From IMG/VR virus record IMGVR_UViG_2531839666_000012: a stretch of DNA of 37,013 nt; one strand, written 5' to 3'. The position numbers and the translations under genes were made by a program. Of this stretch, positions 1-12,806 are shown piece after piece (the stretch's first letter is position 1; each line of letters begins with the position of its first letter). This DNA is from a virus (lineage: Duplodnaviria > Heunggongvirae > Uroviricota > Caudoviricetes). The notes beneath the pieces are model-generated. The model was given only the letters and a program-made list of their open reading frames with translations, ran no database searches and had not been told where the DNA came from.

Positions 1-368
1 TCCACCAGCAACAAAATCCACCACAGAAAAAAACGGTTGTCAGTATCGCCGTTGATCCGGAGTCTCCTGAATCGTTCATGAGGCGGCCTAAACGTCGCCG
101 TTGGGTTAATGAGAAATACACGCGCTGGGTAAAGACACAGCCGTGTGCGTGTTGTGGTAAGCCAGCTGACGATCCACATCACCTGATTGGTCATGGTCAG
201 GGGGGAGTGGGAACAAAGGCCCACGATATTTTCACGCTACCGTTGTGCCGGGAGCACCACAACGAACTTCATGCAGACCCGCTGAAGTTTGAGAAAAAGT
301 ACGGCTCTCAGATTGAGTTAATTTTTCGTTTTCTTGATCACGCCTTTGCGACTGGCGTGCTCGGGTAA
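1..368 (+). CDS. DUF968-family prophage protein (YdfU-like), C-terminal part; 5' end lies outside the window
   Basis: Frame is open from position 3 with no stop before the ATG at 78; Cys/His-rich motif CACCGKPADDPHH...CREHH; sits immediately upstream of rusA and Q as in Qin/Rac-type prophages. Confidence 0.55.
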   Translation, partial: HQQQNPPQKKTVVSIAVDPESPESFMRRPKRRRWVNEKYTRWVKTQPCACCGKPADDPHHLIGHGQGGVGTKAHDIFTLPLCREHHNELHADPLKFEKKYGSQIELIFRFLDHAFATGVLG

Positions 369-380
369 AAGAGGTGACTG

Positions 381-743
381 ATGCTCATAGATTTGGTTTT
401 ACCTTACCCGCCGACGGTGAACACTTACTGGCGACGCCGTGGCAGCACATATTTTGTATCAAAAGCCGGGGAGCGTTATCGCCGGGCAGTGGCGCTTATT
501 GTTCGCCAGCAGCGACTGAAATTAAGCCTGTCCGGACGGCTGGCAATAAAAATTATTGCAGAGCCACCGGATAAGCGCCGCCGTGACCTGGACAATATTC
601 TGAAAGCACCGCTGGATGCGCTGACGCACGCGGGGTTGTTAATGGACGATGAGCAGTTTGATGAAATCAATATTGTACGTGGCCAGCCAGTATCTGGTGG
701 ACGGCTGGAGATAAGAATTACAGAGGTGGGTGTGCATGAATAG
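381..743 (+). CDS. rusA: RusA-family Holliday junction resolvase
   Basis: 120 aa; N-terminal LPYPPTVNTYW, catalytic RRRDLDN motif and C-terminal GGRLEIRITE match recalled E. coli RusA; SD AGAGGTGA 7 nt upstream of ATG 381. Confidence 0.85.
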   Translation: MLIDLVLPYPPTVNTYWRRRGSTYFVSKAGERYRRAVALIVRQQRLKLSLSGRLAIKIIAEPPDKRRRDLDNILKAPLDALTHAGLLMDDEQFDEINIVRGQPVSGGRLEIRITEVGVHE

Positions 744-1425
744 CCAGTATTTACAGTTTGTTCGTGAGCAACTCATGATTGCCACTGCGGATCTCAGTGG
801 GTCGACAAAAGGCCAGCTGGAAGCCTGGCAGGAAAATGCCCTGTTCGATACAGGGCGTTACAGACGTAAAAAAATTCGTTACCGCGATGAGGTAACCGGA
901 AAAATGATCACGCGGGATAATCCACCGATCCCGGGCAAACAATCACTGGCGAAAGGGACGTCAATTGCTCTGGTCAGTCCGGTTGAGTTTGCAACATCAT
1001 CGTGGCGGCGTGCCGTTCTGGAACTGGAAGAACATCAGAAGGCGTGGTTACTGTGGTGCTACAGTGGAAATGTTTGCTGGGAAGATCAGGTCACCATAAC
1101 ACAGTGGGTGTGGAGTGAATTTAAAACTCAGTCCGGCTCCAGAAAAATTGCAGTGAAAACGCTGGAGCGTGTGAAGAAGTTGATCTGGCTGGCGGCACAG
1201 GATGTCAGAGGATGGGTTACCGGGTGTGAGGTCTACCAGAGACAGGAGCTTGCCAGACTGTGTGGAGTTAAGCCTGATAACTGGAGCCATAATTATGCGA
1301 ACTACTGGCGTGAGATGTGCGATATTTTTAAGCGCCTCGATAGAGAATCCTTGATTTGCTCCGTGAAAATAAGAGCGCAACAAAAAGCGACCTTTTCACG
1401 ACGAGATATTGCAAAAGTCAATTAA
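736..1425 (+). CDS. Q: Late-gene antitermination protein Q (Phage_antitermQ-like)
   Basis: About 230 aa ORF directly after rusA and before terminators and late genes; SD GAGGTG 7 nt upstream of ATG 736; family assignment is by synteny and general resemblance, not a verified alignment. Confidence 0.6.
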   Translation: MNSQYLQFVREQLMIATADLSGSTKGQLEAWQENALFDTGRYRRKKIRYRDEVTGKMITRDNPPIPGKQSLAKGTSIALVSPVEFATSSWRRAVLELEEHQKAWLLWCYSGNVCWEDQVTITQWVWSEFKTQSGSRKIAVKTLERVKKLIWLAAQDVRGWVTGCEVYQRQELARLCGVKPDNWSHNYANYWREMCDIFKRLDRESLICSVKIRAQQKATFSRRDIAKVN

Positions 1426-1485
1426 ATCGCGTATGTTTCGTATAAATCTGATATTTTGCCGATTTTGTACGCGATGGCAAAGTAA

Positions 1486-1514
1486 GAAAAAACCACCGCC
1501 AGGTGGTTTTTTTT
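1486..1514 (+). terminator. Rho-independent terminator (candidate tR') downstream of Q
   Basis: Hairpin aaCCACCgccaGGTGGtt followed by an 8-T run. Confidence 0.5.
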
Positions 1515-1637
1515 ATGTCCGAAAATCTCGTCAGTACAGTAAACGCGCTGGTGGTGGTGAATACCGGTCTTTCAGCTTGCTGGCTTTTTTGACAAGAGTT
1601 ATTGGTGTGTCACGTTAACCGGAAAAGGGAAAAAGAC

Positions 1638-1835
1638 ATGCTGAAACAGCAGGATATGACAGAAACCGCCAGAGTGGTGTTTAATGAATTAAGTGCCACC
1701 GAACCGGCGACAGTCGGGGAGATTGCGCAGAATACTTATCTTTCACGTGAACGCTGCCAGTTAATACTGACCCAGCTTGTTATGGCGGGTCTGGCAGACT
1801 ATCAGTTCGGTTGTTACAGACGCCTTCAGTCCTGA
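1638..1835 (+). CDS. Small hypothetical protein (65 aa)
   Basis: ATG at 1638 with SD AAGGGA 7 nt upstream; terminator immediately after the stop; no recognised family. Confidence 0.4.
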   Translation: MLKQQDMTETARVVFNELSATEPATVGEIAQNTYLSRERCQLILTQLVMAGLADYQFGCYRRLQS

Positions 1836-1849
1836 AGGCTTTTTTATTT
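1822..1849 (+). terminator. Rho-independent terminator
   Basis: Stem GCCTTCAg/tGAAGGC with loop tcc, followed by TTTTTTATTT. Confidence 0.5.
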
Positions 1850-1985
1850 GTGGTAAATGGGCGGCTGGTGGGTGTTAGGGGCACTCACCAGCCATCTGCT
1901 CATGCGTCCGGATCACAAGCAAACCTCAGGCCCACTGCTTTGCGCAAAAGCAGAATGAGCCTATCAGAGACAGGCTTAATGATCC

Positions 1986-3044
1986 ATGCTTAATACTGTA
2001 AAAATATCCAGTTGTAAGTTAATCAACGCCGACTGCCTGGAATTTATCCGGTCGTTACCCGAAAATTCTGTTGACCTGATAGTCACGGACCCGCCGTACT
2101 TTAAAGTGAAGCCTGAGGGCTGGGATAACCAGTGGAAGGGCGACGATGATTACCTGAAGTGGCTGGACCAGTGTCTGGCGCAGTTCTGGCGGGTGCTGAA
2201 ACCTGCCGGAAGTCTTTACCTGTTCTGTGGCCATCGCCTGGCATCTGACATTGAAATCATGATGCGTGAACGCTTCAGTGTGCTGAACCATATTATCTGG
2301 GCGAAGCCGTCCGGACGCTGGAACGGGTGCAACAAGGAAAGCCTGAGGGCGTATTTCCCCGCCACAGAGCGCATTCTGTTCGCGGAACATTATCAGGGGC
2401 CGTATCGTCCGAAAGATGCCGGGTATGAGGCGAAGGGCAGGGCACTGAAACAGCATGTGATGGCCCCGCTGATTGCTTACTTTCGTGATGCACGTGCTGC
2501 CCTGGGGATAACGGCAAAACAGATTGCTGATGCCACAGGAAAGAAAAACATGGTGTCGCACTGGTTCAGTGCCAGTCAGTGGCAGCTACCGGACGAAAGC
2601 GATTATCTGAAATTACAGGCGCTGTTTGCCCGGGTGGCAGAAGAGAAGCATCAGCGCGGAGAACTGGAAAAGCCACATCACCAACTGGTCAGCACATACA
2701 GTGAACTGAACCGACACTATACGGAACTGCAGAGTGAATATAAGCATCTGCGGCGGTATTTCGGTGTGACGGCGCAGGTGCCGTACACCGATGTGTGGAC
2801 GCATAAACCGGTGCAGTACTATCCCGGGAAACATCCGTGCGAAAAACCGGCAGAAATGCTGCAGCAGATAATCAGCGCGAGCAGTCGTCCGGGTGACCTG
2901 GTTGCAGATTTTTTCATGGGGTCGGGTTCGACAGTCAAAGCAGCGATGGCGCTGGGGCGTCGTGCAACTGGCGTTGAGCTGGAGACTGAACGTTTTGAGC
3001 AGACGGTCAGGGAAGTTCAGGATTTAGCCAGTCAGAACGGATGA
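1986..3044 (+). CDS. DNA methyltransferase, N6_N4_Mtase (beta-class) family
   Basis: 352 aa; motif IV IVTDPPYF near the N-terminus and motif I FFMGSGST near the C-terminus (order IV then I). Confidence 0.8.
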   Translation: MLNTVKISSCKLINADCLEFIRSLPENSVDLIVTDPPYFKVKPEGWDNQWKGDDDYLKWLDQCLAQFWRVLKPAGSLYLFCGHRLASDIEIMMRERFSVLNHIIWAKPSGRWNGCNKESLRAYFPATERILFAEHYQGPYRPKDAGYEAKGRALKQHVMAPLIAYFRDARAALGITAKQIADATGKKNMVSHWFSASQWQLPDESDYLKLQALFARVAEEKHQRGELEKPHHQLVSTYSELNRHYTELQSEYKHLRRYFGVTAQVPYTDVWTHKPVQYYPGKHPCEKPAEMLQQIISASSRPGDLVADFFMGSGSTVKAAMALGRRATGVELETERFEQTVREVQDLASQNG

Positions 3045-3084
3045 TATTGCAGGATTAGTTACGTACCGTTATTATCCTGCGCCC

Positions 3085-3160
3085 GGCCCTTTAGCTCAGT
3101 GGTGAGAGCGAGCGACTCATAATCGCCAGGTCGCTGGTTCAAATCCAGCAAGGGCCACCA
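3085..3160 (+). tRNA. tRNA-Ile2 (anticodon CAU, lysidine type; ileX/ileZ-like)
   Basis: 76 nt cloverleaf: acceptor GGCCCTT/AAGGGCC, anticodon loop CTCATAA, T-loop TTCAAAT, encoded CCA; near-identical to recalled E. coli ileX. Confidence 0.8.
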
Positions 3161-3167
3161 TCACATA

Positions 3168-3244
3168 CCGCCATTAGCTCATCGGGATAGAGCGCCAGCC
3201 TTCGAAGCTGGTTGCGCGGGGTTCGAGTCCTCGATGGCGGTCCA
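3168..3244 (+). tRNA. tRNA-Arg (anticodon UCG)
   Basis: 77 nt; acceptor CCGCCAT/ATGGCGG, anticodon stem CCAGC/GCTGG with loop CTTCGAA, T-loop TTCGAGT, encoded CCA. Confidence 0.75.
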
Positions 3245-3257
3245 TTATCTGTACACT

Positions 3258-3334
3258 GCGTTGTTAGCTCAGCCGGACAGAGCAATTGCCTTCTAAGCAA
3301 TCGGTCACTGGTTCGAATCCAGTACAACGCACCA
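3258..3334 (+). tRNA. tRNA-Arg (anticodon UCU, argU-like rare-codon tRNA)
   Basis: 77 nt; acceptor GCGTTGT/ACAACGC, anticodon stem ATTGC/GCAAT with loop CTTCTAA, T-loop TTCGAAT, encoded CCA. Confidence 0.8.
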
Positions 3335-3419
3335 CACTTATTTTTCCTGGCTCGCTTTTGTGGGCCTTTTTTGCCTCCGCGCCACGCCCGGCGCATATCA
3401 ACCACAGAGCCTTTCACAA

Positions 3420-4355
3420 ATGGTTTTTCAGGAGTCCAATAATCGCGATGTCGCCAGAAAATACGCAGAGTACATCACGTCCGTTCCTTTGCGTCGGTTT
3501 GTCGCTGAAAAAGTGCGGGAATATTGTGGTGATCTGCCCCTGAGTATTTTTGATGGTGCGTGTGGCTCCGGGCAACTGGAGCAGTTTCTCACGGTGGGAA
3601 GTCTGTATGCTGTGGATATACAGGCCTCTCCGTTGGTGCATATCCCGGATAATTTCCCGGATGCCACAGTGAAGACGGTCAATGAAAATTTCTTCAACGC
3701 CATCGATGATGTCAGTGACACGGACACGTTCGATTGTGTCATCATGAATCCGCCTTTTTCGCTACAGTACAAAGCACAGAGCGCGGATATCAGGGAGAAG
3801 ATTTCAGCGATGATGCCTTATAAAAAGACCTCCGGTGTTCTGGATGACGCGTTTTATGTTCTGGCGAGCATGAAGGCAAGATTTTCATTTTTTTTGTGCT
3901 TTCCCGGGGTTGGTTACAGGCGTGGTGAGCTGGCAATGCGTCAGTATTTTGGCAACCGCGTTGTTGAGTTGGTTCAGATTTCAGGCGGGTTCGCTGATAC
4001 ATCGGTTTCTGTATTATTCGTCATTATTGATAACGAAAAGCAAAGCGATGATGTTGTTGTTTATGGCGTCGGGTTTAATGGGGAAACTTGCAAAAAGTCA
4101 GCGCCGGTGACGGAGAAGATTAACACAGACAACTGGAACAGGCCGTACATTGCTGAAGAGAAGGAGGTCATTGACATTGTACAGGTGACGGCTGAGTTGC
4201 TTGTAAGGCAAACAAGAAGACGGAAACTTGAAGATGAGCATAACGCCTTTGTGTGGTCCTTAATGAGTGATGATCAGCGGACGGAGGTTTCCCGTTTTCT
4301 GTCAGTGCACGGTTTGTTTTTTGATGCCGGTTCAGGTTGTGTGCACATACGTTAA
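3420..4355 (+). CDS. N6-adenine DNA methyltransferase (gamma-class), no adjacent restriction enzyme
   Basis: Motif I FDGACGSG then motif IV VIMNPPFS; start uncertain (ATG 3420 or GTG 3360, both lack a clear SD). Confidence 0.7.
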   Translation: MVFQESNNRDVARKYAEYITSVPLRRFVAEKVREYCGDLPLSIFDGACGSGQLEQFLTVGSLYAVDIQASPLVHIPDNFPDATVKTVNENFFNAIDDVSDTDTFDCVIMNPPFSLQYKAQSADIREKISAMMPYKKTSGVLDDAFYVLASMKARFSFFLCFPGVGYRRGELAMRQYFGNRVVELVQISGGFADTSVSVLFVIIDNEKQSDDVVVYGVGFNGETCKKSAPVTEKINTDNWNRPYIAEEKEVIDIVQVTAELLVRQTRRRKLEDEHNAFVWSLMSDDQRTEVSRFLSVHGLFFDAGSGCVHIR

Positions 4356-4404
4356 ATCTGGTGCCGGTCGCTGGTTGCCGGTGTCGTGATGATTGTCTTC
4401 CTGT

Positions 4405-4660
4405 TGCCCCGAAAATTTTAAATGTCTCACAATTCAGACGGTTGACAGTTGTCTGATTTGCGGGGAGTTTGTTAAAAGAAACTGGCATGGTGAATCCCCC
4501 TGAGCGGAGGGGCATATCAGCGACAGGTGTTTGGTTACATCCCTTATCCTTTCTGTGCGGGTTCAGGTGCTGATACTGAACTCACCGGGAGGCACCCGGC
4601 ACCATGCGCATGATGATACAGATACGCAGCGTCAGCCCCTCTCCGGAGGGGCTTTTCTGT
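4405..4660 (+). repeat. Hairpin-rich noncoding element, copy A (candidate sRNA gene)
   Basis: Shares with copy B a CA-rich box CTCACAATTCAG, TTGACA/TTGAAG -35-like hexamer, GC hairpin CCCCCTGAGCGGAGGGG, box CTGAACTCACCGGGAGGCACCCGGCA and terminator hairpin AGCCCCTCtccgGAGGGGCT+TTTT (4634-4660). Confidence 0.5.
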
Positions 4661-4892
4661 GCCGGATACATCACAGTTTCTGGAACCTTGGGTACTACAG
4701 TATCAGTCAGGGTGCTATATTTTCAGATGTGATGAAAGCCTGTCAGCAGGCAGGGCGTATCGGAAATGACCCAGTAGAGAAAACGTTGACTCAGATACCG
4801 GTGCTGAGTTACCGGGAAACCGGCATCACATGACCGCTATCCTTCCAGGCCCGTCCGCTCCGGTGGGCCTTTTTACTGCAGAAAACAGGTTC

Positions 4893-5148
4893 CCCGTTAA
4901 ATGCTATGTTGCTCACAATTCAGTCAGTTGAAGGTTGTCTTCCCGACTGAGAATTTGTTAAAAAATTTCTGCATGATGAATCCCCCTGTGCGGAGGGGCG
5001 GCTGGTGTACGGTATGGTCTCTGATGATCGTTAGCGAGAATGACGCGGGTTCGGTGGCACCGGGCTGAACTCACCGGGAGGCACCCGGCATCATGCAATG
5101 AACGGTACATAGCGCTACTCCAGCCCCTCTCCGGAGGGGCTTTCTTAT
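4893..5148 (+). repeat. Hairpin-rich noncoding element, copy B (candidate sRNA gene)
   Basis: Paralogue of copy A about 486 bp downstream with the same conserved boxes and terminator hairpin (5122-5148); a minus-strand terminator (GCCCGCAT/ATGCGGGC after an A-run) follows at 5152-5181. Confidence 0.5.
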
Positions 5149-5378
5149 GGATAAAAAAAGCCCGCATGGTGAGATGCGGGCAGCAAGGAATAAACAACAA
5201 AACGTGAAGTAATCAATTTTTCAGCTGGCGAATAATACCCGACAGTAATCACTCTGCGCAACTGCGCGGCCTTTTTCGTATTGCGGGCTGTAGTCTTCCT
5301 TCTGTCATTGTCCTGTAACTTCCGGACTTCAGCCCGCCCCTTATCTGACTCACAACATTATCCCGACCGGGAGGATTC

Positions 5379-6855
5379 ATGGCATTTAAACACTATGACG
5401 TGGTCAGGGCGGCGTCGCCGTCAGACCTTGCGGAGCGACTGACTCAAAAACTGAAGGAGGGGTGGCAGCCATTTGGCAGCCCGGTGGCCATCACGCCTTA
5501 TACCCTGATGCAGGCCATTGCGGCGGAAGGTGATGTCACCACACCTGTGGTGGTGAAGCCGTCGGATGGAGAAGGCACAGTTATCAGCGCCACCAGCGAC
5601 CCAGAGTATTACTACGTGATTACGCTGGCTGGCCAGTCAAACAGCATGGCATATGGTGAAGGCCTTCCGCTGCCGGAGACATATGACCGTCCGGACCCGC
5701 GTATTAAGCAGCTGGCGCGTCGCAGTACAGTGACACCGGGAGGTACTCCCTGTAAATATAACGACATCATTCCGGCAGACCATTGTCTTCATGATGTTGA
5801 AGATATGACCAGGCTAAAACCCCCCAAAGCTAAAGATGCAGAATACGGTTGTGTTGGCCAGGGTTTGCATATTGGTAAGAAACTACTGCCATTTATCCCT
5901 GCTAATGCAGGTATTCTGCTGGTCCCTTGTGGACGTGGCGGATCAGGCTTTAGTACCGGAACAGAAGGACAGTATTATGAAGCCTCTGGCGCAATCGACG
6001 CATCATCAAAATGGGGGCTTGGGACACCTCTATATAAAGATCTGGTTGCCAGAACCAAAGCTGCATTAGACAAAAACAAAAAGAACGTATTTCTTGGCGT
6101 TGTCTGGATGCAGGGTGAGGCAGATATGGCTGCCGGAAAACATGCAGAACACAATGCACTTTTCCTGAAAATGGTTGAAGGTTTCCGCACTGAGTTAGAG
6201 AAATATGATGCTCAATGCGTATATGGTAGTGCTGCGAAAGTCCCCTGGATTTGCGGCGATACCACGTATTACTGGAAAACCAAATACGCGTCTCAATATG
6301 AAGTTGTGTACGGTGGTTACAAAGGGAAAACGGATAAGGCTATTTATTTTGTTCCGTTTATGACGGATGAAAATAATGCAAATGTTACAACCAATAAGCC
6401 CGAGGAAGACCCGGATATTGAAGCTATTGGATATTATGGCTCCAAATGGCGTGATAGTTCAACAACATGGACGTCACAGTACAGAGATAGCCATTTTAGC
6501 TCATGGGCTCGTCGAGGTATCGTTTCGGATCGACTGGCAACAGCAATTGTAACCTATGCAGGTAAATCATCTGCCTTTGTGAATGGTATTACAGAAGTAA
6601 CAGCACCGGAAGAGGCGCCAACATCTTCTTCATCGCCAGCTTCTGAAGCTCATAATGAAGAAAATACGGTTGCCACTTCGGAGTCTGTCATTCTCTACGA
6701 TGCCAAAAAAGCTTCGGACAATCAGCTGAAACCTTATGGCTGGGACGGTATGGATGGCAGACGCACACTGGTTGATGACAGCGGCAATAAAGCTCTGCGA
6801 ATTGAGAAAAATAACAGCGCGAAATCCTGGTCAATGTACTGTGATATTGCTGCAG
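5379..6855 (+). pseudogene. nanS-p: nanS-p (prophage sialate O-acetylesterase), N-terminal part, interrupted by an IS
   Basis: DUF1737-like N-terminus, SGNH/sialate esterase motifs ITLAGQSNSMAYGEG and WMQGEAD; SD GGGAGG before ATG 5379; frame runs into the IS left end at 6856 and stops 29 nt inside it. Confidence 0.8.
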
Positions 6856-6909
6856 TGAATCGCCCCGGGAATCCTGGAGACTAAACTCCTTGAGAGAGAG
6901 GTAAACAGG

Positions 6910-7236
6910 ATGACTAAAAATACGCGCTTTTCCCCTGAGGTCCGTCAGCGGGCCGTTCGTATGGTTATCGAAAGCCAGAATGACTATGACTCGCAGTGGG
7001 CGGCCATCAGCTCCATCGCCCCTAAAATCGGCTGTACGCCTGAGACCCTGCGTACCTGGCTGCGTCAGTATGAGCGCGATGCCGGTGCAGGTGACGGCGG
7101 ACTGAGCACCACTGAACGTCAGCGTCTGAAGGAACTGGAGCGTGAAAACCGCGAACTGCGCCGCAGCAACGATATCCTGCGCCAGGCTTCCGCGTATTTT
7201 GCGAAGGCGGAGTTCGACCGCCTGTGGAAAAAATAG
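6910..7236 (+). CDS. IS3-family transposase OrfA (HTH/leucine zipper)
   Basis: 108 aa, [19 protein letters not shown]... matches recalled IS629/IS1203 OrfA; ends at an A6 slippery run (7228-7233). Confidence 0.85.
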
Positions 7237-8123
7237 CGCCTCTGGTGGATACCCTGCGTGGTGCGCACGGGGTCGGACCGGTATGCCACGAGCTGGCTGT
7301 CGCCCCGTCAACGTATTACCGGCATCGTGCGCATCAACGGCATCCGGATAAACGCAGTCAGCGGGCACAGCGTGATGACCTGCTGAAGCCGGAGATACAG
7401 CGCGTGTACGATGAAAACCACAGCGTGTACGGTGTGCGCAAGGTCTGGCGCCAGTTGTTGCGTGAGGGGGTGACCGTGGCCAGGTGCACAGTAGAACGGC
7501 TGATGAAGGTGATGGGGCTTGCCGGTGTGCGCCGGGGTAAAAAGGTCCGCACCACAGTCAGCCGGAAAGAAGCCGCTGCGGGTGACCGGGTGAACCGCCA
7601 GTTCGTGGCAGAACGCCCCGACCAGCTGTGGGTGGCTGACTTCACGTATGTGAGCACCTGGCAGGGCTTCGCTTACGTGGCGTTCATCATCGATGTGTTC
7701 GCCGGCGTCATTGTGGGCTGGCGGGTCTCATCGTCGATGAAAACGACGTTCGTGCTGGATGCACTGGAGCAGGCGCTGTGGGCCCGTCGCCCGTCGGGCA
7801 CCATCCATCACTCAGATAAGGGGTCACAATATGTGTCGCTGGCATACACTCAGCGGCTTAAGGATGCAGAGTTGCTGGCGTCAACCGGCAGCACAGGCGA
7901 CTCATATGACAACGCGATGGCGGAGAGCATCAACGGACTTTATAAAGCGGAGGTGATACATCGTAAGAGCTGGAAAAACCGCGCCGAAGTGGAACTGGCC
8001 ACACTGACGTGGGTGGACTGGTACAATAACCGACGGTTGCTGGAACGACTGGGTCATATCCCGCCGGCAGAAGCGGAAAAGGCATATTACGCTTCCATCG
8101 GAAATGGTGGTCTGGCAGCCTGA
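7224..8123 (+). CDS. IS3-family transposase OrfB (DDE catalytic domain)
   Basis: 299 aa in the -1 frame relative to orfA, overlapping its 3' end; likely made as an OrfAB fusion by programmed -1 frameshift. Confidence 0.85.
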
Positions 8124-8165
8124 GTTCACAGATAAAACACTCTCCCGGAAAACCGGGGCGGTTCA

Positions 8166-8650
8166 CAGACAAGGCAAAACTGTTACTGGAAAAAGGCGGG
8201 GAAATTGCTGTCCGGTTTAAAATCCCTGAAAACGTCAATCTTGAAACAACCAGAAACAAGTATGCCTTTGGTTTGTACTGGCGAATAGCGGAATGGCCGG
8301 GTGAGGGTGGTGAAGGCTATCTGAGTTCTTTCTTTGTCCAGACAGATAAAGCCAGTATTGATGTTGCATACCATCATACAGGTAATCAACAAAAAGAACT
8401 TGGCACGTTTGGCGCATTCGACCATGACTGGCATACGCTTGCATTTAAATTTAAGGGCAGTAACAGCATTAATGTTACTCCGGTGTTTGATGATGTGGAT
8501 GGACAGGCGTTTGACCTGGTGAAATGGGCCAATACTGCTAATGAACTCAACAGGTTTGTCATTACGGATATTACAGGTACTGCTGAAACTTACCCTGTAC
8601 TTATTGATACGGTGGAAGTTAAAGCAAACAAAGCTGGAGCAGCCGCATAA
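8166..8650 (+). pseudogene. nanS-p: nanS-p C-terminal fragment displaced by the IS
   Basis: Frame is open from 8168 to the stop at 8650 and, after removing the IS plus one CAG copy, is in frame with the 5379 ORF (offset 1313 = 2 mod 3). Confidence 0.65.
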
Positions 8651-8779
8651 TTGCTAAAAAAAGCCGCCAGCGGCAGGAATGGAAGCTGGCGGCTGGTAAA
8701 ACGACCATGATGACACCGAAGTCTGCGGTGTTTTTCTACAAAAATAAGTAAATCATGTCAACTATCACGGTGAGAAACC

Positions 8780-8962
8780 ATGACATTTCTGAACCAGTTA
8801 ATGCTGTACTTCTGTACGGCGGTCTGTGTGCTGTATCTTCTTTCGGGTGGGTACAGGGCAGTGCGCGATTTCTGGCGCAGGCAGATTGATAAAAGGGCCG
8901 CTGAGAAAATCAGCGCCAGTCAGTCAGCCGGAAGCAAACCCGAAGAGCCCATTACTCCTTAA
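8780..8962 (+). CDS. Hypothetical small membrane protein (60 aa)
   Basis: ORF with a hydrophobic N-terminal segment (LMLYFCTAVCVLYLLSGG); no family recognised. Confidence 0.35.
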   Translation: MTFLNQLMLYFCTAVCVLYLLSGGYRAVRDFWRRQIDKRAAEKISASQSAGSKPEEPITP

Positions 8963-8987
8963 TAACCCCTTTCAGCGAGAAAATCCT

Positions 8988-9233
8988 ATGTCAGAAGTAA
9001 AACCCCTGGTCACTGCTGAAGCAGTGAAGGAAGTCCTGCGCTCTGAAGAAGTCCTGAGCGCACTGAAACAGAAACTCCGCCAGAACCTTGAGTCGCGTCT
9101 TGATGCAGAAGTGGAGGCCATTCTGGATGAACTGCTGGGCGCACCGGCTGTTCCGGAGCCGGAAGGCATTGCGGGTGACGGGAGTGCTTCAGATGGCGGT
9201 GAACCCACACCCGACAGCGACATGATGATGTAA
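8988..9233 (+). CDS. Hypothetical acidic protein (81 aa)
   Basis: ATG 8988 preceded by GAGAAAA; acidic coiled-coil-like composition; immediately upstream of the holin. Confidence 0.45.
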
Positions 9234-9309
9234 GCATGCGCAAGGGACCATCGGTGTGTGCCGGTGGTCTTTATATTGTTGTGAGCTTCCGGATTGCGGG
9301 AGACGGGGT

Positions 9310-9526
9310 ATGTACCAGATGGAAAAAAGTCACAACAGGTGTGTCATACACCACGTCAGCGGTGGGAACGGGCTACTGGTTCCTGCAGTTGCTGGACAGG
9401 GTTTCCCCGTCTCAGTGGGCGGCAATAGGCGTGCTGGGGAGTCTGCTGTTTGGTCTGCTGACGTACCTGACGAACCTGTATTTCAAGATTAAAGAAGACC
9501 GTCGTAAGGCGGCGCGGGGAGAGTAG
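9310..9526 (+). CDS. S: Phage 21 S-type pinholin (class II holin), frame-disrupted at an A6 run as sequenced
   Basis: C-terminal 60 aa ([51 protein letters not shown]) match recalled S21; dual-start ATGs at 9310 and 9319 (MYQMEK) are in the +1 frame relative to the body and join it only if the A6 run 9323-9328 is A5; the track ORF 9236-9526 is the same body with a non-homologous N-terminal extension. Confidence 0.7.
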
Positions 9527-9529
9527 ACG

Positions 9530-10171
9530 ATGAACCATGAAGAAATGAATCAGCGCTTCAGTCGTCTGGAAAATGAAATTGCTGAACTGAATAAAAAACT
9601 GTCGGTGCTGATGCCTTCTGAAGATGCAAACAAACGCTGCGATGAGCAGTTTGCGGCGTTTTACGATGATTGCATCAAAATTGCTCGCAGGACCTTTGCG
9701 AAGATTTTGCAGGAAAAGTTTTTACCGGCCGCATTGTCAGAAAAGTACTCCATTACGGTTAAAAGTGCCGGAGAGGAAGGCAATAAGCGTTATTTTATTG
9801 CGTCTGCACCGGATAAAGACCAGGAATGGGAGTGTAACCGGCCATCCTTTGTTGTATCCGGTGATGACGGGAAAATCACCATATCAGAAAATGGAAAAGT
9901 AACACCGCCATCGCACCAGCACAGTGAGACGCTCATTGAATTTGCCATTGATTACCTGAAGAACAATAAAAAACAGGGGCTGATGAAGCGCATTGGTCGC
10001 TGCATGGGATATCTGCAGCTGGCGGCAGAGATTGAAGCACTTGCCAGTGGTGCAGACAGGGATGCTGCGGTGCGGGAGGGTCTTCTTTGTGATTTCAATA
10101 CGCCACCCTTTAAGAAAGAGCCTGATGGCTGGATCCAGCCGGGGCTGACTTATCTCAAATGGCGCATATAG
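9530..10171 (+). CDS. Hypothetical protein (213 aa) inserted between holin and endolysin
   Basis: SD GGGAG upstream of ATG 9530; predicted N-terminal coiled coil; lower GC than flanking lysis genes; no family recognised. Confidence 0.6.
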   Translation: MNHEEMNQRFSRLENEIAELNKKLSVLMPSEDANKRCDEQFAAFYDDCIKIARRTFAKILQEKFLPAALSEKYSITVKSAGEEGNKRYFIASAPDKDQEWECNRPSFVVSGDDGKITISENGKVTPPSHQHSETLIEFAIDYLKNNKKQGLMKRIGRCMGYLQLAAEIEALASGADRDAAVREGLLCDFNTPPFKKEPDGWIQPGLTYLKWRI

Positions 10172-10198
10172 TAAAAGAGAAAACAATTGAGGTGAAAA

Positions 10199-10426
10199 AT
10201 GAAAAAATACGATATGACAGTTAAATCATTCCACATGGGGGATAAAAATGTTGTCGTTGTCCTTGGTATATATAATTATCAGGTTCCATCAATGCTGTTG
10301 TTCAATATTGAAATAGATATTGAACGACGGGAAGATGCTACCATTCCGTTTTATGAGGCGCTGGCTTTAAAAAAAGCAGCCTCGCTAATTCATGAAATTT
10401 CTGATGATTTAGCAGTGGCTGCTTAG
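10199..10426 (+). CDS. Hypothetical protein (75 aa)
   Basis: SD GAGGTG 6 nt upstream of ATG 10199; AT-rich; no family recognised. Confidence 0.5.
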   Translation: MKKYDMTVKSFHMGDKNVVVVLGIYNYQVPSMLLFNIEIDIERREDATIPFYEALALKKAASLIHEISDDLAVAA

Positions 10427-10430
10427 ATTT

Positions 10431-10718
10431 TTATTTCAAAAATGGCTCAGGACTGGTATTGCCAAACATGGGTCTTACCGGTGGTTGCATGAGGGTATTG
10501 ATGGCGACTTTAATCTCTGGTTTACCTGAGGTTGTGATTTTGCTCAGTTCGCTATGTAACCTGGTTTTAAGCTCATCACTGAATTTCTTGTCTCCACTTT
10601 GCTGATCCAGAATGTCAACGATGTTGTAGAACAGGAAATTGGCTGCGGTATTTATAGCTATGTTTTCGCGCTGAAGCCCCTGAATTAGTTGAAAAAGTTC
10701 ATGGTTTGATATTTCCAT
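10431..10718 (-). CDS. Hypothetical protein (95 aa), convergent with the two preceding genes
   Basis: Minus-strand ATG at 10718 with SD AAGGAG 7 nt upstream (plus-strand CTCCTT at 10725-10730); track ORF extends to 10781 but has no RBS there. Confidence 0.5.
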   Translation of the reverse strand: MEISNHELFQLIQGLQRENIAINTAANFLFYNIVDILDQQSGDKKFSDELKTRLHSELSKITTSGKPEIKVAINTLMQPPVRPMFGNTSPEPFLK

Positions 10719-10842
10719 TAAGTTCTCCTTATTGAGGTTATCAGCCATCCCTCTTTTGTTACATGTGCCAGTGCCCACCACTGGCAGGCTGAAGACTTAA
10801 CATATCCAGGGATTCGGAACCGATAAATCCTGATAAATATCC

Positions 10843-11376
10843 ATGAACACCAAAATCAAATACGGCCTGTCGGCTGCCGTTCTGGCGCTGATTGCCGCAG
10901 GTGCGCCTGCGCCTGAAATCCTCGACCAGTTTCTTGACGAAAAAGAAGGTAACCACACCACGGCATACCGTGATGGTGCGGGTATCTGGACCATCTGCCG
11001 AGGTGCCACCCGGGTGGATGGTAAGCCTGTGATTCCTGGCATGACGCTGTCGAAGGGGAAATGCGACCAGGTTAACGCCATTGAGCGTGATAAAGCGCTG
11101 GCATGGGTGGAGAAAAACATCAGAGTGCCACTGACCGAACCCCAGAAAGCGGGGATCGCGTCATTCTGTCCTTACAACATTGGCCCCGGTAAGTGTTTCC
11201 CGTCGACGTTTTATAAACGAATTAATGCAGGCGATCGCAGGGGAGCGTGTGAAGCGATTCGCTGGTGGATTAAGGACGGTGGCAGAGACTGCCGTATCCG
11301 CTCAAATAATTGTTATGGTCAGGTATCCCGTCGTGACCAGGAGAGCGCGCTGGCGTGCTGGGGTATCGACAGATAA
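10843..11376 (+). CDS. R: SAR endolysin (T4-lysozyme-type muramidase, phage 21 R-like)
   Basis: N-terminal signal-anchor-release segment KYGLSAAVLALIAAGAPAP, then catalytic-region motif EGNHTTAYRDGAGIWTICRGAT. Confidence 0.85.
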   Translation: MNTKIKYGLSAAVLALIAAGAPAPEILDQFLDEKEGNHTTAYRDGAGIWTICRGATRVDGKPVIPGMTLSKGKCDQVNAIERDKALAWVEKNIRVPLTEPQKAGIASFCPYNIGPGKCFPSTFYKRINAGDRRGACEAIRWWIKDGGRDCRIRSNNCYGQVSRRDQESALACWGIDR

Positions 11377-11465
11377 GCAGAATATTTTGCTGAAAAATGA
11401 CGTTGACTAACGCGGACGGATAACACGAAATCCTGCGAACTGGCAAAACCTAAGTGAATAAAAGT

Positions 11466-11500
11466 AAAAACCCCGTTTGTTGGCAGCAAGCGGGGTTTTG
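11466..11500. terminator. Bidirectional rho-independent terminator
   Basis: Stem CCCCGtttg/caagCGGGG flanked by an A5 run upstream and T4 downstream. Confidence 0.45.
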
Positions 11501-11731
11501 TGTTTCTGACCTTGGATAAGGCAAGGGAGAACATGGAAAAGTATAAACGAATTCTGTTGAGGTTGACTATGAAAAACGGCCTTGAACTGAAAGCGCCAGA
11601 GTAACTGATGACATCAGCAGAGCGCTGGCTTTTGCTATTAAGTGGGTGGCGGTTGGTATCGCTGTGTCTCCGATACTGTATGGGCTGGCAAAACTGGTCA
11701 TTGCGTTGAAATCGTGAAGGGAGGATTAAGC

Positions 11732-11863
11732 ATGTCAGACAAACTCATAATGCTGGCGAAGATCCTCTGTGTAATCGTCGGCATTTCATTTTCACTAATG
11801 CTGGTTGCTATTTGCTTTTCCACTGCCTGGCGCGTCTTAACTCTGTCAGGGCTGGTGGGGTGA
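11732..11863 (+). CDS. Hypothetical small membrane peptide (43 aa)
   Basis: ATG 11732 preceded by GGGAGGA; single predicted TM helix ILCVIVGISFSLMLVAICF; ends 8 nt before the methyltransferase start. Confidence 0.35.
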   Translation: MSDKLIMLAKILCVIVGISFSLMLVAICFSTAWRVLTLSGLVG

Positions 11864-11870
11864 CAGAAAC

Positions 11871-12806
11871 ATGAAATGTGTACTGTATTCCGGTGACTGT
11901 CTTGATGTTATGCCTTCATTACTACCGGGAAGTGTTGACCTGGTTTTATGTGACCCGCCGTATGGAACCATTAAAGGGCTTACACTCCGTACATGGGATA
12001 AGAGTACGACAGCATGGGACGATGCCTTAAATCCTGAAGATATTTTCACACAGTGCGAACGACTGCTGAGGGTGGGCGGTGTGCTGGTCATGTTCAGCCA
12101 GGAGCCGCATACAAGCACGATGATTACTCTGGCGGATAAAAACCTGCCGTTTTTATATCGTATGGTGTGGAAGAAGGAGCATTTCCCCAACCCGCTTTCA
12201 GTAAAAAAAGCACCTGTATCTTTATTCGAGGATATCGTTGTTTTCCGGAAAAAATATGACAGTGAGAAAAACCACCCGCTGAGGGAGTACGCCCGAAATA
12301 TCCTTTCTTTCATTGGCCACAGGACAGACAAGGAAGTTAACAAAACACTGGGGCACCGTCGGGCAGAGCATTTTTTTTGCGTGAACACACTCCAGTTTTC
12401 CCTCTGCTCACAGGATACGTATAACGAGTTAATTAAACGCTTTGGTATCGACCGTATGCCGGGTTTCATGACATATGAAGAAATGCGCAAAGTGAATTCC
12501 GGTTACGGCACTGTGGTTTTTAATCTCCCTCAGGGGAAAAAATACCGCGCAAATATTCTGGAGTACGCGCGGGAGCGGGAGCGATGGCATCCGACCCAGA
12601 AGCCAGTTGCATTACTGGAAGAGCTGATTCAGACGTACAGCAACCCTGGCGACAGGGTACTGGATTTTACTATGGGGAGTGGTTCAACAGGTGTTGCATG
12701 TATCCGGACGGGGAGACGGTTTACCGGAATAGAAAAGGATGACCGGTATTTCGCTGTTGCAAAAAAACGTCTGGAAAAAGAAAACAGTGAAATGGTGGTG
12801 ATATGA
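11871..12806 (+). CDS. DNA methyltransferase, N6_N4_Mtase (beta-class) family, inserted between R and Rz
   Basis: Motif [10 protein letters not shown] near the N-terminus and motif [10 protein letters not shown] near the C-terminus. Confidence 0.8.

Follow-up and report, generated by a model that had tools for sequence, protein, structure and literature searches.

An STnc100-type small RNA locus at the stx-equivalent site of a prophage sequence

The moron site of the Sakai prophages carries convergent pairs of small RNAs (sRNAs), of which the sense RNA EcOnc27 and the antisense RNA EcOnc02, identical to AsxR, form one; similar pairs occur in Sp3, Sp4, Sp9, Sp10, Sp11, Sp15 and Sp17 (Tree et al., PMC4104026). 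Such dyads are found in at least eight Sakai prophages, and their function was called unclear in a 2021 review (PMC7873438). Here we describe a site of this kind in 37,013 nt of caudoviral DNA (IMG/VR record IMGVR_UViG_2531839666_000012; this whole stretch is called the window), in which an initial annotation, made from the letters alone, had placed two hairpin-rich candidate sRNA elements at positions 4356-5378.

EcOnc27 is the sRNA103 of strain EDL933, and its overexpression raised fimZ and espA. In EDL933, 11 copies of the STnc100 family were transcribed according to RNA-seq, and one was seen by Northern blot (PMC5331693). The PasD sRNAs of enteropathogenic E. coli (EPEC) have an Hfq-dependent stability and many partners in RIL-seq, which ligates and sequences interacting RNAs (PMC8550237); their seed, UGUGAG, lies in the linker just 5' of the terminator and pairs with CUCACA in the targets. 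The homology of STnc100 and PasD was already proposed in a 2026 preprint (bioRxiv 10.64898/2026.05.13.724894), which describes STnc100 as abundant beside Pas sRNAs, and EPEC PasD1 and PasD2 as sharing their origin with STnc100 and lying between Q and the sialate esterase gene as distal, not tandem, copies.

Three sense units and their fold

The window was scanned against Rfam 15, in which STnc100 is family RF02076 with a gathering score of 47 bits. Two plus-strand matches were obtained, unit 1 at 4456-4662 (134.9 bits) and unit 3 at 4942-5152 (168 bits); both lie far above the threshold and match the model end to end, and are therefore STnc100 members. The resemblance of the two repeats is not due to chance, since this one covariance model matches both (E = 1e-30 and 1e-38). 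The initial annotation was right about these two repeats but undercounted, as it missed a third, diverged unit at 4727-4875 and a minus-strand RNA at 5152-5226. Unit 2 matched RF02076 at a relaxed threshold (4703-4876, 28.5 bits, E 0.005); being below the gathering score, it is a diverged relative of STnc100 and not a formal Rfam member. A core-only covariance model built from 43 diverse homologs (R1), run with filters off, found exactly three plus-strand units in the 37-kb window, and their parts are as follows.

4485-4658, +, unit 1 sRNA of about 174 nt, STnc100 family
4485-4607, +, unit 1 core, R1 score 88.9 bits
4485-4492 / 4600-4607, unit 1 helix P1 (GCAUGGUG/CACCAUGC)
4495-4513, unit 1 P2
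4515-4522 with 4568-4575, unit 1 pseudoknot
4559-4566 / 4576-4583, unit 1 P4
4585-4599, unit 1 P5
4608-4633, unit 1 3' linker
4634-4653 plus UUUU, unit 1 terminator
4727-4875, +, unit 2 sRNA of about 149 nt, diverged, between units 1 and 3
4727-4831, +, unit 2 core, R1 score 27.4 bits, E 6.9e-5
4727-4734 / 4824-4831, unit 2 P1 (AUGUGAUG / CAUCACAU)
4758-4763 with 4798-4803, unit 2 pseudoknot
4812-4823, unit 2 P5, CCGG-GAAA-CCGG
4847-4870 plus U5, unit 2 terminator, from the terminator scan
4971-5149, +, unit 3 sRNA of about 176 nt, STnc100 family
4971-5096, +, unit 3 core, R1 score 84.7 bits
GCAUGAUG / CAUCAUGC, the two strands of unit 3 P1
5002-5008 with 5057-5063, unit 3 pseudoknot
5097-5121, unit 3 3' linker
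5122-5141, unit 3 terminator, with a weak U-tract (UUUCUUAU)

The minimum free energy (MFE) fold of unit 1 recovered P1, P4, P5 and the terminator. Unit 2 retains the family architecture, including a P2-like hairpin and P4, and its MFE fold agrees. Between units 3 and 1, P1 shows a compensatory change from G-C to A-U. The three 3' linkers (GCAUGAUGAUACAGAUACGCAGCGUC, GACCGCUAUCCUUCC and AAUGAACGGUACAUAGCGCUACUCC) differ from one another and from that of PasD.

Structure statistics were computed for 43 cores with pairwise identities below 80%. Overall, 86.5% of the alignment cells were paired and 22 pairs had changed on both sides, while slid-register controls were paired at about 45%. P2 was paired in 99.6% of cells, with compensatory changes at three of its seven pairs, and P4 in 85.9%, with such changes at six of eight. 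P1 reached 95.6% and likewise showed compensatory changes at six of eight pairs, although the 5' boundaries of the cores had required at least seven of the eight P1 pairs, which inflates the percentage paired and leaves the range of pair types unaffected. P5, having been set by the search pattern, is uninformative.

The strand right after P2 is complementary to the P4 loop, and the two form a pseudoknot. Its longest duplex measured 6.39 nt on average, compared to 4.59 ± 0.12 nt when loops were swapped between sequences (z = 14.8); the maximum in 500 permutations was 5.02, and reversed loops gave a mean of 4.38. The pseudoknot strands comprised 43 distinct sequences. In a fixed-register count on a MAFFT alignment no more than 52% was paired, as the register of the loop varies from one sequence to the next, and the register-free permutation test was used instead. 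In units 1 to 3 the pairings are UAUCAGCG/UGCUGAUA, UAUCGG/CCGGUG and CUGGUGU/GCACCGG, and in PasD2 AAUGAUC/GAUCAUU; both P1 and the pseudoknot covary between the units of the window. Invariant bases of junctions and loops are GAAU, the loop UNNGC, GCG(R)G and GGGAGGCA. The pseudoknot is absent from the consensus line of RF02076, and the word does not appear in the 2026 preprint (10.64898/2026.05.13.724894); the pseudoknotted core is a family-level lead and may be new.

The repeats themselves had been described correctly. Sequence reading and a repeat search found every listed box in its place in two elements of about 255 bp between the methyltransferase gene and nanS-p. The two copies (256 bp) are 69% identical overall, with conserved blocks flanking a variable middle.

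4426-4437 (box 1) and 4912-4923 (box 2), +, CA-rich box CTCACAATTCAG, at the 5' edge of the unit 1 cassette and upstream of the unit 3 promoter
4442-4447 / 4928-4933, +, hexamers TTGACA / TTGAAG
4496-4513 and 4982-4999, +, GC hairpin CCCCC..GGAGGGG
4576-4601 and 5065-5090, +, box CTGAACTCACCGGGAGGCACCCGGCA, within a 32-nt block whose copies are 97% identical
4634-4653 and 5122-5141, +, terminator hairpin AGCCCCTCTCCGGAGGGGCT, identical in both copies

This block-wise conservation, taken at the outset for RNA structure rather than coding, proved to be just that: the pairing of P1, P2 and P4 is kept through compensatory changes, and the open reading frames (ORFs) are not conserved. There is next to no chance that the repeats are small protein-coding genes or remnants of a duplicated nanS-p leader, a possibility that the initial annotation had itself named. 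ATG-initiated ORFs do start at 4487 and 4973, CTCACAA recurs in the nanS-p leader (5349-5355), and ACCGGGAGG occurs both in P5 and in the nanS-p ribosome-binding site. However, the ORFs that start from the ATG in P1 (28, 31, 11 and 25 amino acids) are conserved neither in length nor in sequence and are unrelated beyond residue 8, and the ATG is lost through covariation of P1 and not kept in other genera. There is no second copy of the leader (5225-5378), what it has in common with the units is limited to words of 7-15 nt, and the same RNA family occurs far from nanS-p in many genera. Both ideas were ruled out by the lack of ORF conservation and by the non-repeated leader. The evidence supports the view that the units are prophage sRNA genes, non-coding and located at the stx-equivalent (moron) site.

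Promoters, targets and the role of the core

Each unit is preceded by promoter-like boxes.

4449-4477, +, predicted sigma-70 promoter of unit 1: TTGTCT (4449-4454), 17-bp spacer, TTAAAA (4472-4477)
4713-4721, +, predicted extended -10 of unit 2 (TGcTATATT), ending 6 nt before the first P1 base (4727)
4935-4963, +, predicted promoter of unit 3: TTGTCT (4935-4940), 17-bp spacer, TTAAAA (4958-4963)

The arrangement TTGTCT-17-TTAAAA is common to unit 1, unit 3 and the Sakai Sp4 and Sp5 copies (TTGCCT in Sp5) and has the same register as in PasD; the PasD2 promoter, TTGACT-17-TTAAAA, aligns with the boxes of units 1 and 3. The 5' end of PasD2 RNA (GCAUGG; GCAUGGUGAAUCC) was mapped by RNA-seq coverage and Northern size (PMC8550237 Table S6). 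Given the PasD register of their promoters, units 1 and 3 are predicted to begin with the first P1 base, at 4485 in unit 1 and at 4971 in unit 3. Conservation in distant homologs likewise begins at P1, and R1 finds PasD1, PasD2 and EcOnc13 of Sakai Sp3, each beginning exactly at the mapped 5' end of PasD (PasD2, L003 3158-3256, and PasD1, L004 3261-3359: 36.6 bits, E 3e-7).

The hexamers TTGACA and TTGAAG are indeed present, but probably do not serve as the -35 element proposed for them: this would need the poor -10 sequences GAGTTT and GAATTT, and the PasD-aligned TTGTCT-17-TTAAAA fits better. A consensus promoter scan picked up neither a TTGACA/TTGAAG-based promoter nor TTGTCT-17-TTAAAA. The CA boxes precede the predicted start sites by 48-59 bp, and the CA box is also where homology to the single cassette of Sakai Sp4 sets in; the box is probably not part of the RNA and its role is probably related to the promoter. 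A CRP-like site over it (TGTCT-N6-TCAGA) was considered and rejected, as it has seven of ten consensus positions and is centred near -52, on the wrong helical face.

The initial annotation had also likened the CA box to GcvB target sites and the elements to anti-sRNAs such as AgvB. That the elements sponge GcvB in this way, through the CA box, is very unlikely in our estimate. They do sit where dyads of the AgvB/AsxR type occur, and the box contains CACAA. Nevertheless, neither RF02702 (AgvB) nor RF02703 (AsxR) gave a hit in window positions 1-12000 even at E ≤ 10, while AsxR was detected in Sakai Sp5 as a positive control (88.1 bits). The 3' block of about 42 nt shared by AgvB, AsxR and EcOnc03 (GUAUCUCAUGCNNUUGCCCGAACCC...) had no match in the whole window at up to 3 mismatches, and strand and size (about 174-176 versus 51-60 nt) are wrong as well. 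Membership in, or close relation to, AgvB/AsxR was therefore rejected in favour of STnc100, which supplies the sense RNA of such dyads as EcOnc27 does opposite AsxR. Duplex energies with GcvB's R1 region, taken from E2348/69, were compared to a background of all 25-nt windows of the 37 kb. For CA boxes 1 and 2, upstream of the predicted promoters and starts, the values were -10.5 kcal/mol (59th percentile) and -12.1 kcal/mol (41st percentile), hence about the background median, compared to -21.0 kcal/mol for the 5' end of AgvB; the GcvB sponge via the CA box was thus dropped. The best pairing with GcvB R1 in the region was the unit 1 linker at 4614-4638 (-24.4 kcal/mol, top 0.14% of windows). 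It speaks for the sponge idea only as a weak lead within the expectation from multiple testing, as chance would yield about three equally good windows in the roughly 2,170 that were tested.

We regard it as probable that the locus is a prophage sRNA array made of three tandem STnc100 genes and one antisense gene of the EcOnc08/21/42 type, and that the lysogen makes from it Hfq sRNAs with seeds in their linkers. Located at the moron site, with the late promoter/tRNA cluster on one side and nanS-p on the other, the array would have a separate promoter and terminator for each sense unit. Each sense RNA of about 150-175 nt would start at the first base of P1, so that its 5' end would be buried. 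Its first 100-125 nt would form a domain in which P1 closes P2, a variable hairpin, P4 and P5, and in which the pseudoknot joins the post-P2 strand to the P4 loop; an unstructured linker of 15-26 nt and an intrinsic terminator would follow. Made in the lysogen from their own promoters, the RNAs would bind Hfq at the 3' end and pair through the variable linker with host and prophage mRNAs, the structured core acting as a stabilising or protein-binding module. As the linkers differ among the three units, so would their target sets. Family membership, architecture, covariation and synteny can be read directly from the DNA; expression, Hfq dependence and seed location are expected for the units because the homologs EcOnc27/sRNA103 and EcOnc13 (crosslinking and analysis of cDNA with Hfq, Hfq-CRAC) and PasD1/2 (RIL-seq) behave in this way.

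Several points weigh against such an sRNA array, besides the boundary rule that favours P1 pairing. The start sites of the units are predicted from homology with PasD, and EcOnc27 measured about 235/247 nt on Northern blots compared to about 171 nt from the Sp5 boundaries, so transcription may begin further upstream or read through. Units 1 (UUUU-C) and 3 (UUU-C-UU) have short U-tracts, poor for both Hfq binding and termination, and we know of no validated target for any STnc100 member. A pseudoknotted domain with invariant loops is moreover atypical of Hfq sRNAs, and the position of the core directly 5' of tRNA genes and ORFs in other genera hints at a role unrelated to seed pairing.

The distribution of the core bears on this last point. 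More than 120 stretches of species-representative genomes contain the CACCGGGAGGCACCCGGCA box, nearly all of them from Enterobacterales (Kosakonia, Enterobacter, Pantoea, Salmonella, Klebsiella, Rahnella, Erwinia and others); the few occurrences in unrelated genomes such as Streptomyces are chance matches, and the enterobacterial stretches sampled were called STnc100 by Rfam. In Pantoea, Superficieibacter and others (loci L053, L081, L084, L098, L100 and L118) 3-6 units stand in tandem arrays at a spacing of about 250-570 nt, with tRNA genes interspersed; the distance from the end of a core to the following tRNA is 8-10 nt in some cases, as in L098 (core 4622-4740, tRNA 4749-4821) and also in L118.

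A sub-variant of P2, GAAUGCGGCUCAGCGCACGCG, is compensatory relative to CCCCC/GGGG (CCCCC/GG-GGG versus GCGGC/GC-CGC). It occurs at L009 and L011 (both E. coli), L023, L024, L031, L043, L047, L071, L090, L096, L104, L114 and L117, and the members scanned (L009, L011, L023 and L104) were not called STnc100 at the Rfam gathering score. This sub-variant lies 30-125 nt upstream of small mobile-element ORFs and looks like a 5' leader version of the core module; the ORFs are heterogeneous, and no common downstream gene was found for it. An alternative pairing between P2 and terminator in the manner of a riboswitch was considered as well: the arms are complementary in the E. coli copies, but the terminators differ in other lineages, and the idea was dropped.

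The conserved core could itself be the functional part, acting not by seed pairing but as a generic 5' module for protein or ligand binding, protection or processing, with linker and terminator incidental; we consider this rather unlikely. The covariation-supported pseudoknot with its invariant bases, the spread of the CACCGGGAGGCACCCGGCA box, the arrays with cores next to tRNA genes and the P2 variant that covaries upstream of small ORFs all suggest that the core has a function of its own. On the other hand, those homologs whose 3' ends are of the sRNA type are bound by Hfq, with RIL-seq chimeras at the 3' linker; we know of no ligand, protein partner or cleavage; the heterogeneous ORFs of the leader variant provide no common regulon that would point to a ligand; and there is no conserved terminator/antiterminator alternative, terminator sequences varying by lineage. 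In a broader form, which we put forward tentatively and rate as possible rather than probable, the STnc100/PasD core is a distinct P1-closed, pseudoknotted RNA domain used across Enterobacterales as the 5' module of mobile-element transcripts carrying sRNAs, tRNAs or small ORFs. If so, the three units here would be three copies of that module with a role of their own, for example protein or ligand binding or the control of processing. A pseudoknotted core spread across Enterobacterales, in arrays and beside tRNA genes, is unusual for an Hfq sRNA and offers a handle on the function of the dyads.

The convergent antisense RNA and the nanS-p leader

Downstream of unit 3, the following features complete the array that we favour.

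5152-5226, -, convergent antisense sRNA, short form of about 75 nt, homolog of Sakai Sp4 EcOnc08/21/42 and of the EPEC RIL-seq candidate E2348C_1409.E2348C_1408.IGR
5181-5160 plus U7 tail, -, strong terminator of the antisense RNA, facing unit 3, from the terminator scan
5261-5232, -, predicted promoter of the short antisense RNA: TTGCGC (5261-5256), 18-bp spacer, TATTAT (5237-5232)
5254-5269, +, terminator-like hairpin of the nanS-p leader, with T-run, conserved in Sp4, Sp5 and EPEC PP6

On the minus strand, 5149-5378 is 88% identical to the Sakai Sp4 locus. The antisense RNA contains a G/U-rich single strand, GUUUUGUUGUUUAUUCCUUGC, with CACGUUUUGUUGUUUAUUCCUUGCUGCCCGC... upstream of the terminator, and its terminator stem shows a compensatory change relative to the homologs (alignment A2). 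The Hfq-CRAC cluster 1179938-1180010 (EcOnc08) maps onto the homologous 73 nt and starts just downstream of the homologous -10, and a TTGCGC box identical to that of the predicted promoter lies upstream of the 5' end of AsxR mapped in Sp5 (PMC4104026). Published EcOnc08/21/42 Northern blots gave a size of about 271 nt, and the probe matches the plus strand at 5231-5265; there may be a long form that extends as far as about 5425 and lies antisense to both leader and start codon of nanS-p. Expression and Hfq binding have been shown for the Sakai and EPEC homologs only and would be expected here by analogy. At E ≤ 10, the only other Rfam overlaps were weak, sub-threshold minus-strand hits at 5145-5242. 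Judged by its sequence, the antisense slot that AsxR or AgvB holds elsewhere (AsxR in Sp5) is filled here by a different known type of RNA.

The terminator scan gave eight terminator-like hits in the 1.1 kb from 4300 to 5400, corresponding to five separate hairpins, compared to 1.1 ± 1.1 hits in shuffles. This excess, the position between the late promoter/tRNA region and the late genes, and the conserved leader hairpin at 5254-5269 would fit a stack of intrinsic terminators acting in cis, which shields nanS-p and the lysis genes in the lysogen and is read through by Q-modified polymerase after induction, the RNAs being by-products. We hold this to be quite improbable: it does not by itself explain a core of about 100-125 nt with compensatory changes and a pseudoknot, nor the spread of the family outside late operons, every unit has promoter-like boxes, and the homologs accumulate as discrete Hfq-bound RNAs.

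The nanS-p leader itself (5345-5378, +) carries CUCACAACA about 25 nt before the AUG, which includes the consensus target of GcvB R1, CACAACA, as well as CUCACA, the target motif of PasD. A 41-nt leader segment paired with GcvB R1 at -22.4 kcal/mol; a 7-mer like CACAACA is expected by chance a few times per window, and the Sakai Sp4 and Sp5 leaders have CACAAUA in its place. The invariant 5' segment of the core (AUGAAUCCCCC, 4976-4993) approximates the reverse complement of the nanS-p ribosome-binding region (GGGAGGAUUCAU, 5363-5380), with which P5 also has ACCGGGAGG in common. This likeness may be fortuitous, or it may connect the sRNAs with the translation of nanS-p.

Context and comparison with known sRNA loci

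The 1.1-kb region is 100% identical in E. coli FHI_NMBU_11 (L001; NZ_CP045712.1 422344-423444), where the gene order is Q, DNA methyltransferase, tRNA Ile/Arg/Arg, SAM (S-adenosylmethionine)-dependent methyltransferase, sRNA region, SASA esterase (nanS-p type), holin and lysozyme. At least 80% of it is carried by 353 of 5,426 complete E. coli genomes (~6.5%), and some part of it by 2,735. Its neighbours in the window are:

3360-4355, SAM methyltransferase, upstream neighbour of the sRNA region
from 5379, SASA esterase of nanS-p type, downstream neighbour of the sRNA region

The esterase ORF ends at 6884 (501 amino acids), while the otherwise identical FHI_NMBU_11 locus encodes 652. An element of the IS3 family of insertion sequences (IS) follows, with ORFs at 6910-7236 and 7224-8123 and, at 7191-7307, an ALIL frameshift pseudoknot (95.3 bits); an IS629/IS1203-like insertion seems to have disrupted the esterase gene, in a way similar to Sakai Sp5. 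At 3085-3160, ARAGORN called a tRNA Met (CAT), and the identical gene is tRNA-Ile (ileZ) in RefSeq records; it is the usual lysidine-modified CAU isoacceptor of Stx-type phages. Directly after the Q gene (ORF 730-1425), the hairpin-rich stretch 1416-1556, with sub-threshold Rfam hits to Phe_leader, RNAI, isrK and STnc370, is probably the late promoter and tR' region, which in Stx phages is the origin of StxS-type short transcripts (PMC7873438).

In Sakai Sp5 (L002) an STnc100 gene lies at 6423-6628 (+), 75 nt after stx2B, with AsxR directly after it at 6630-6682 (-), and the Hfq cluster and Northern probe of EcOnc27 map to the 3' part of this gene; stx2AB there occupies the slot of the second methyltransferase. 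The family thus directly adjoins stx2, which provides a clinical link: promoter-segment variants of the stx2-linked copy are among the features predicting haemolytic uraemic syndrome (HUS) in O157:H7, and two HUS-associated variants lie at +90 and +103 after stx2B (PMC12711010). These map to the Sp5 promoter segment (L002 6409-6451), just upstream of the P1 start at 6452 and outside the structured core, the exact bases depending on how the positions of that paper are counted from the stop codon. In Sakai Sp4 the order is tRNAs, one STnc100 gene, the EcOnc08/21 region and a nanS-p homolog. In prophage PP6 of EPEC E2348/69, the STnc100 copy upstream of the EPEC antisense sRNA (L005 3480-3660) is cut within P2 by the IS4-like ISEc13 and still scores 75.5 bits with Rfam.

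The HK022 put-like antiterminator RNA was rejected as a relative: put has two stems in about 70 nt, lacks both a closing helix and a pseudoknot (PMC9378689), and shows no resemblance. AgvB (RF02702), AsxR (RF02703) and EcOnc03 occupy the same prophage region as our units and make up the antisense side of such dyads (PMC4104026); their length of 51-60 nt, opposite strand and shared 42-nt 3' block are not met with in the region here. The antisense RNA has the G/U-rich stretch, the CUUGC seed area and the U7 terminator in common with EcOnc08/21/42 of Sakai Sp4 and Sp15 and the EPEC candidate, and differs by a 4-nt insertion, the A-U/G-C compensatory change in the terminator stem and another terminator loop.

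PasD1/2 and EcOnc13 have the core architecture including the pseudoknot in common with the units, and also the location between Q and the sialate esterase/lysis genes. The P5 of PasD is, however, reduced, RF02076 does not call PasD at its gathering score, and the PasD seed UGUGAG is missing from all three linkers here; the units are therefore paralogs of PasD, not orthologs. The closest counterpart of units 1 and 3 is EcOnc27/sRNA103, with which they have in common the cassette of CA box, TTGTCT/TTGCCT-17-TTAAAA, GCAUGGUGAAUCCCCC... and terminator, as well as position and orientation directly before a convergent antisense sRNA and nanS-p. In contrast to Sp5 and Sp4 with one unit each, three tandem units are found here; the elements are 65-77% identical to the Sp4/Sp5 copies, with a different variable hairpin and 3' linker, and the upstream slot holds a SAM-dependent DNA methyltransferase instead of the stx of Sp5. 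The locus is an ordinary, already known kind of element, the sRNA dyad site that EHEC (enterohaemorrhagic E. coli) and EPEC lambdoid prophages have between late promoter and lysis genes, and its tandem triple arrangement and diverged middle unit are minor variations on that type.

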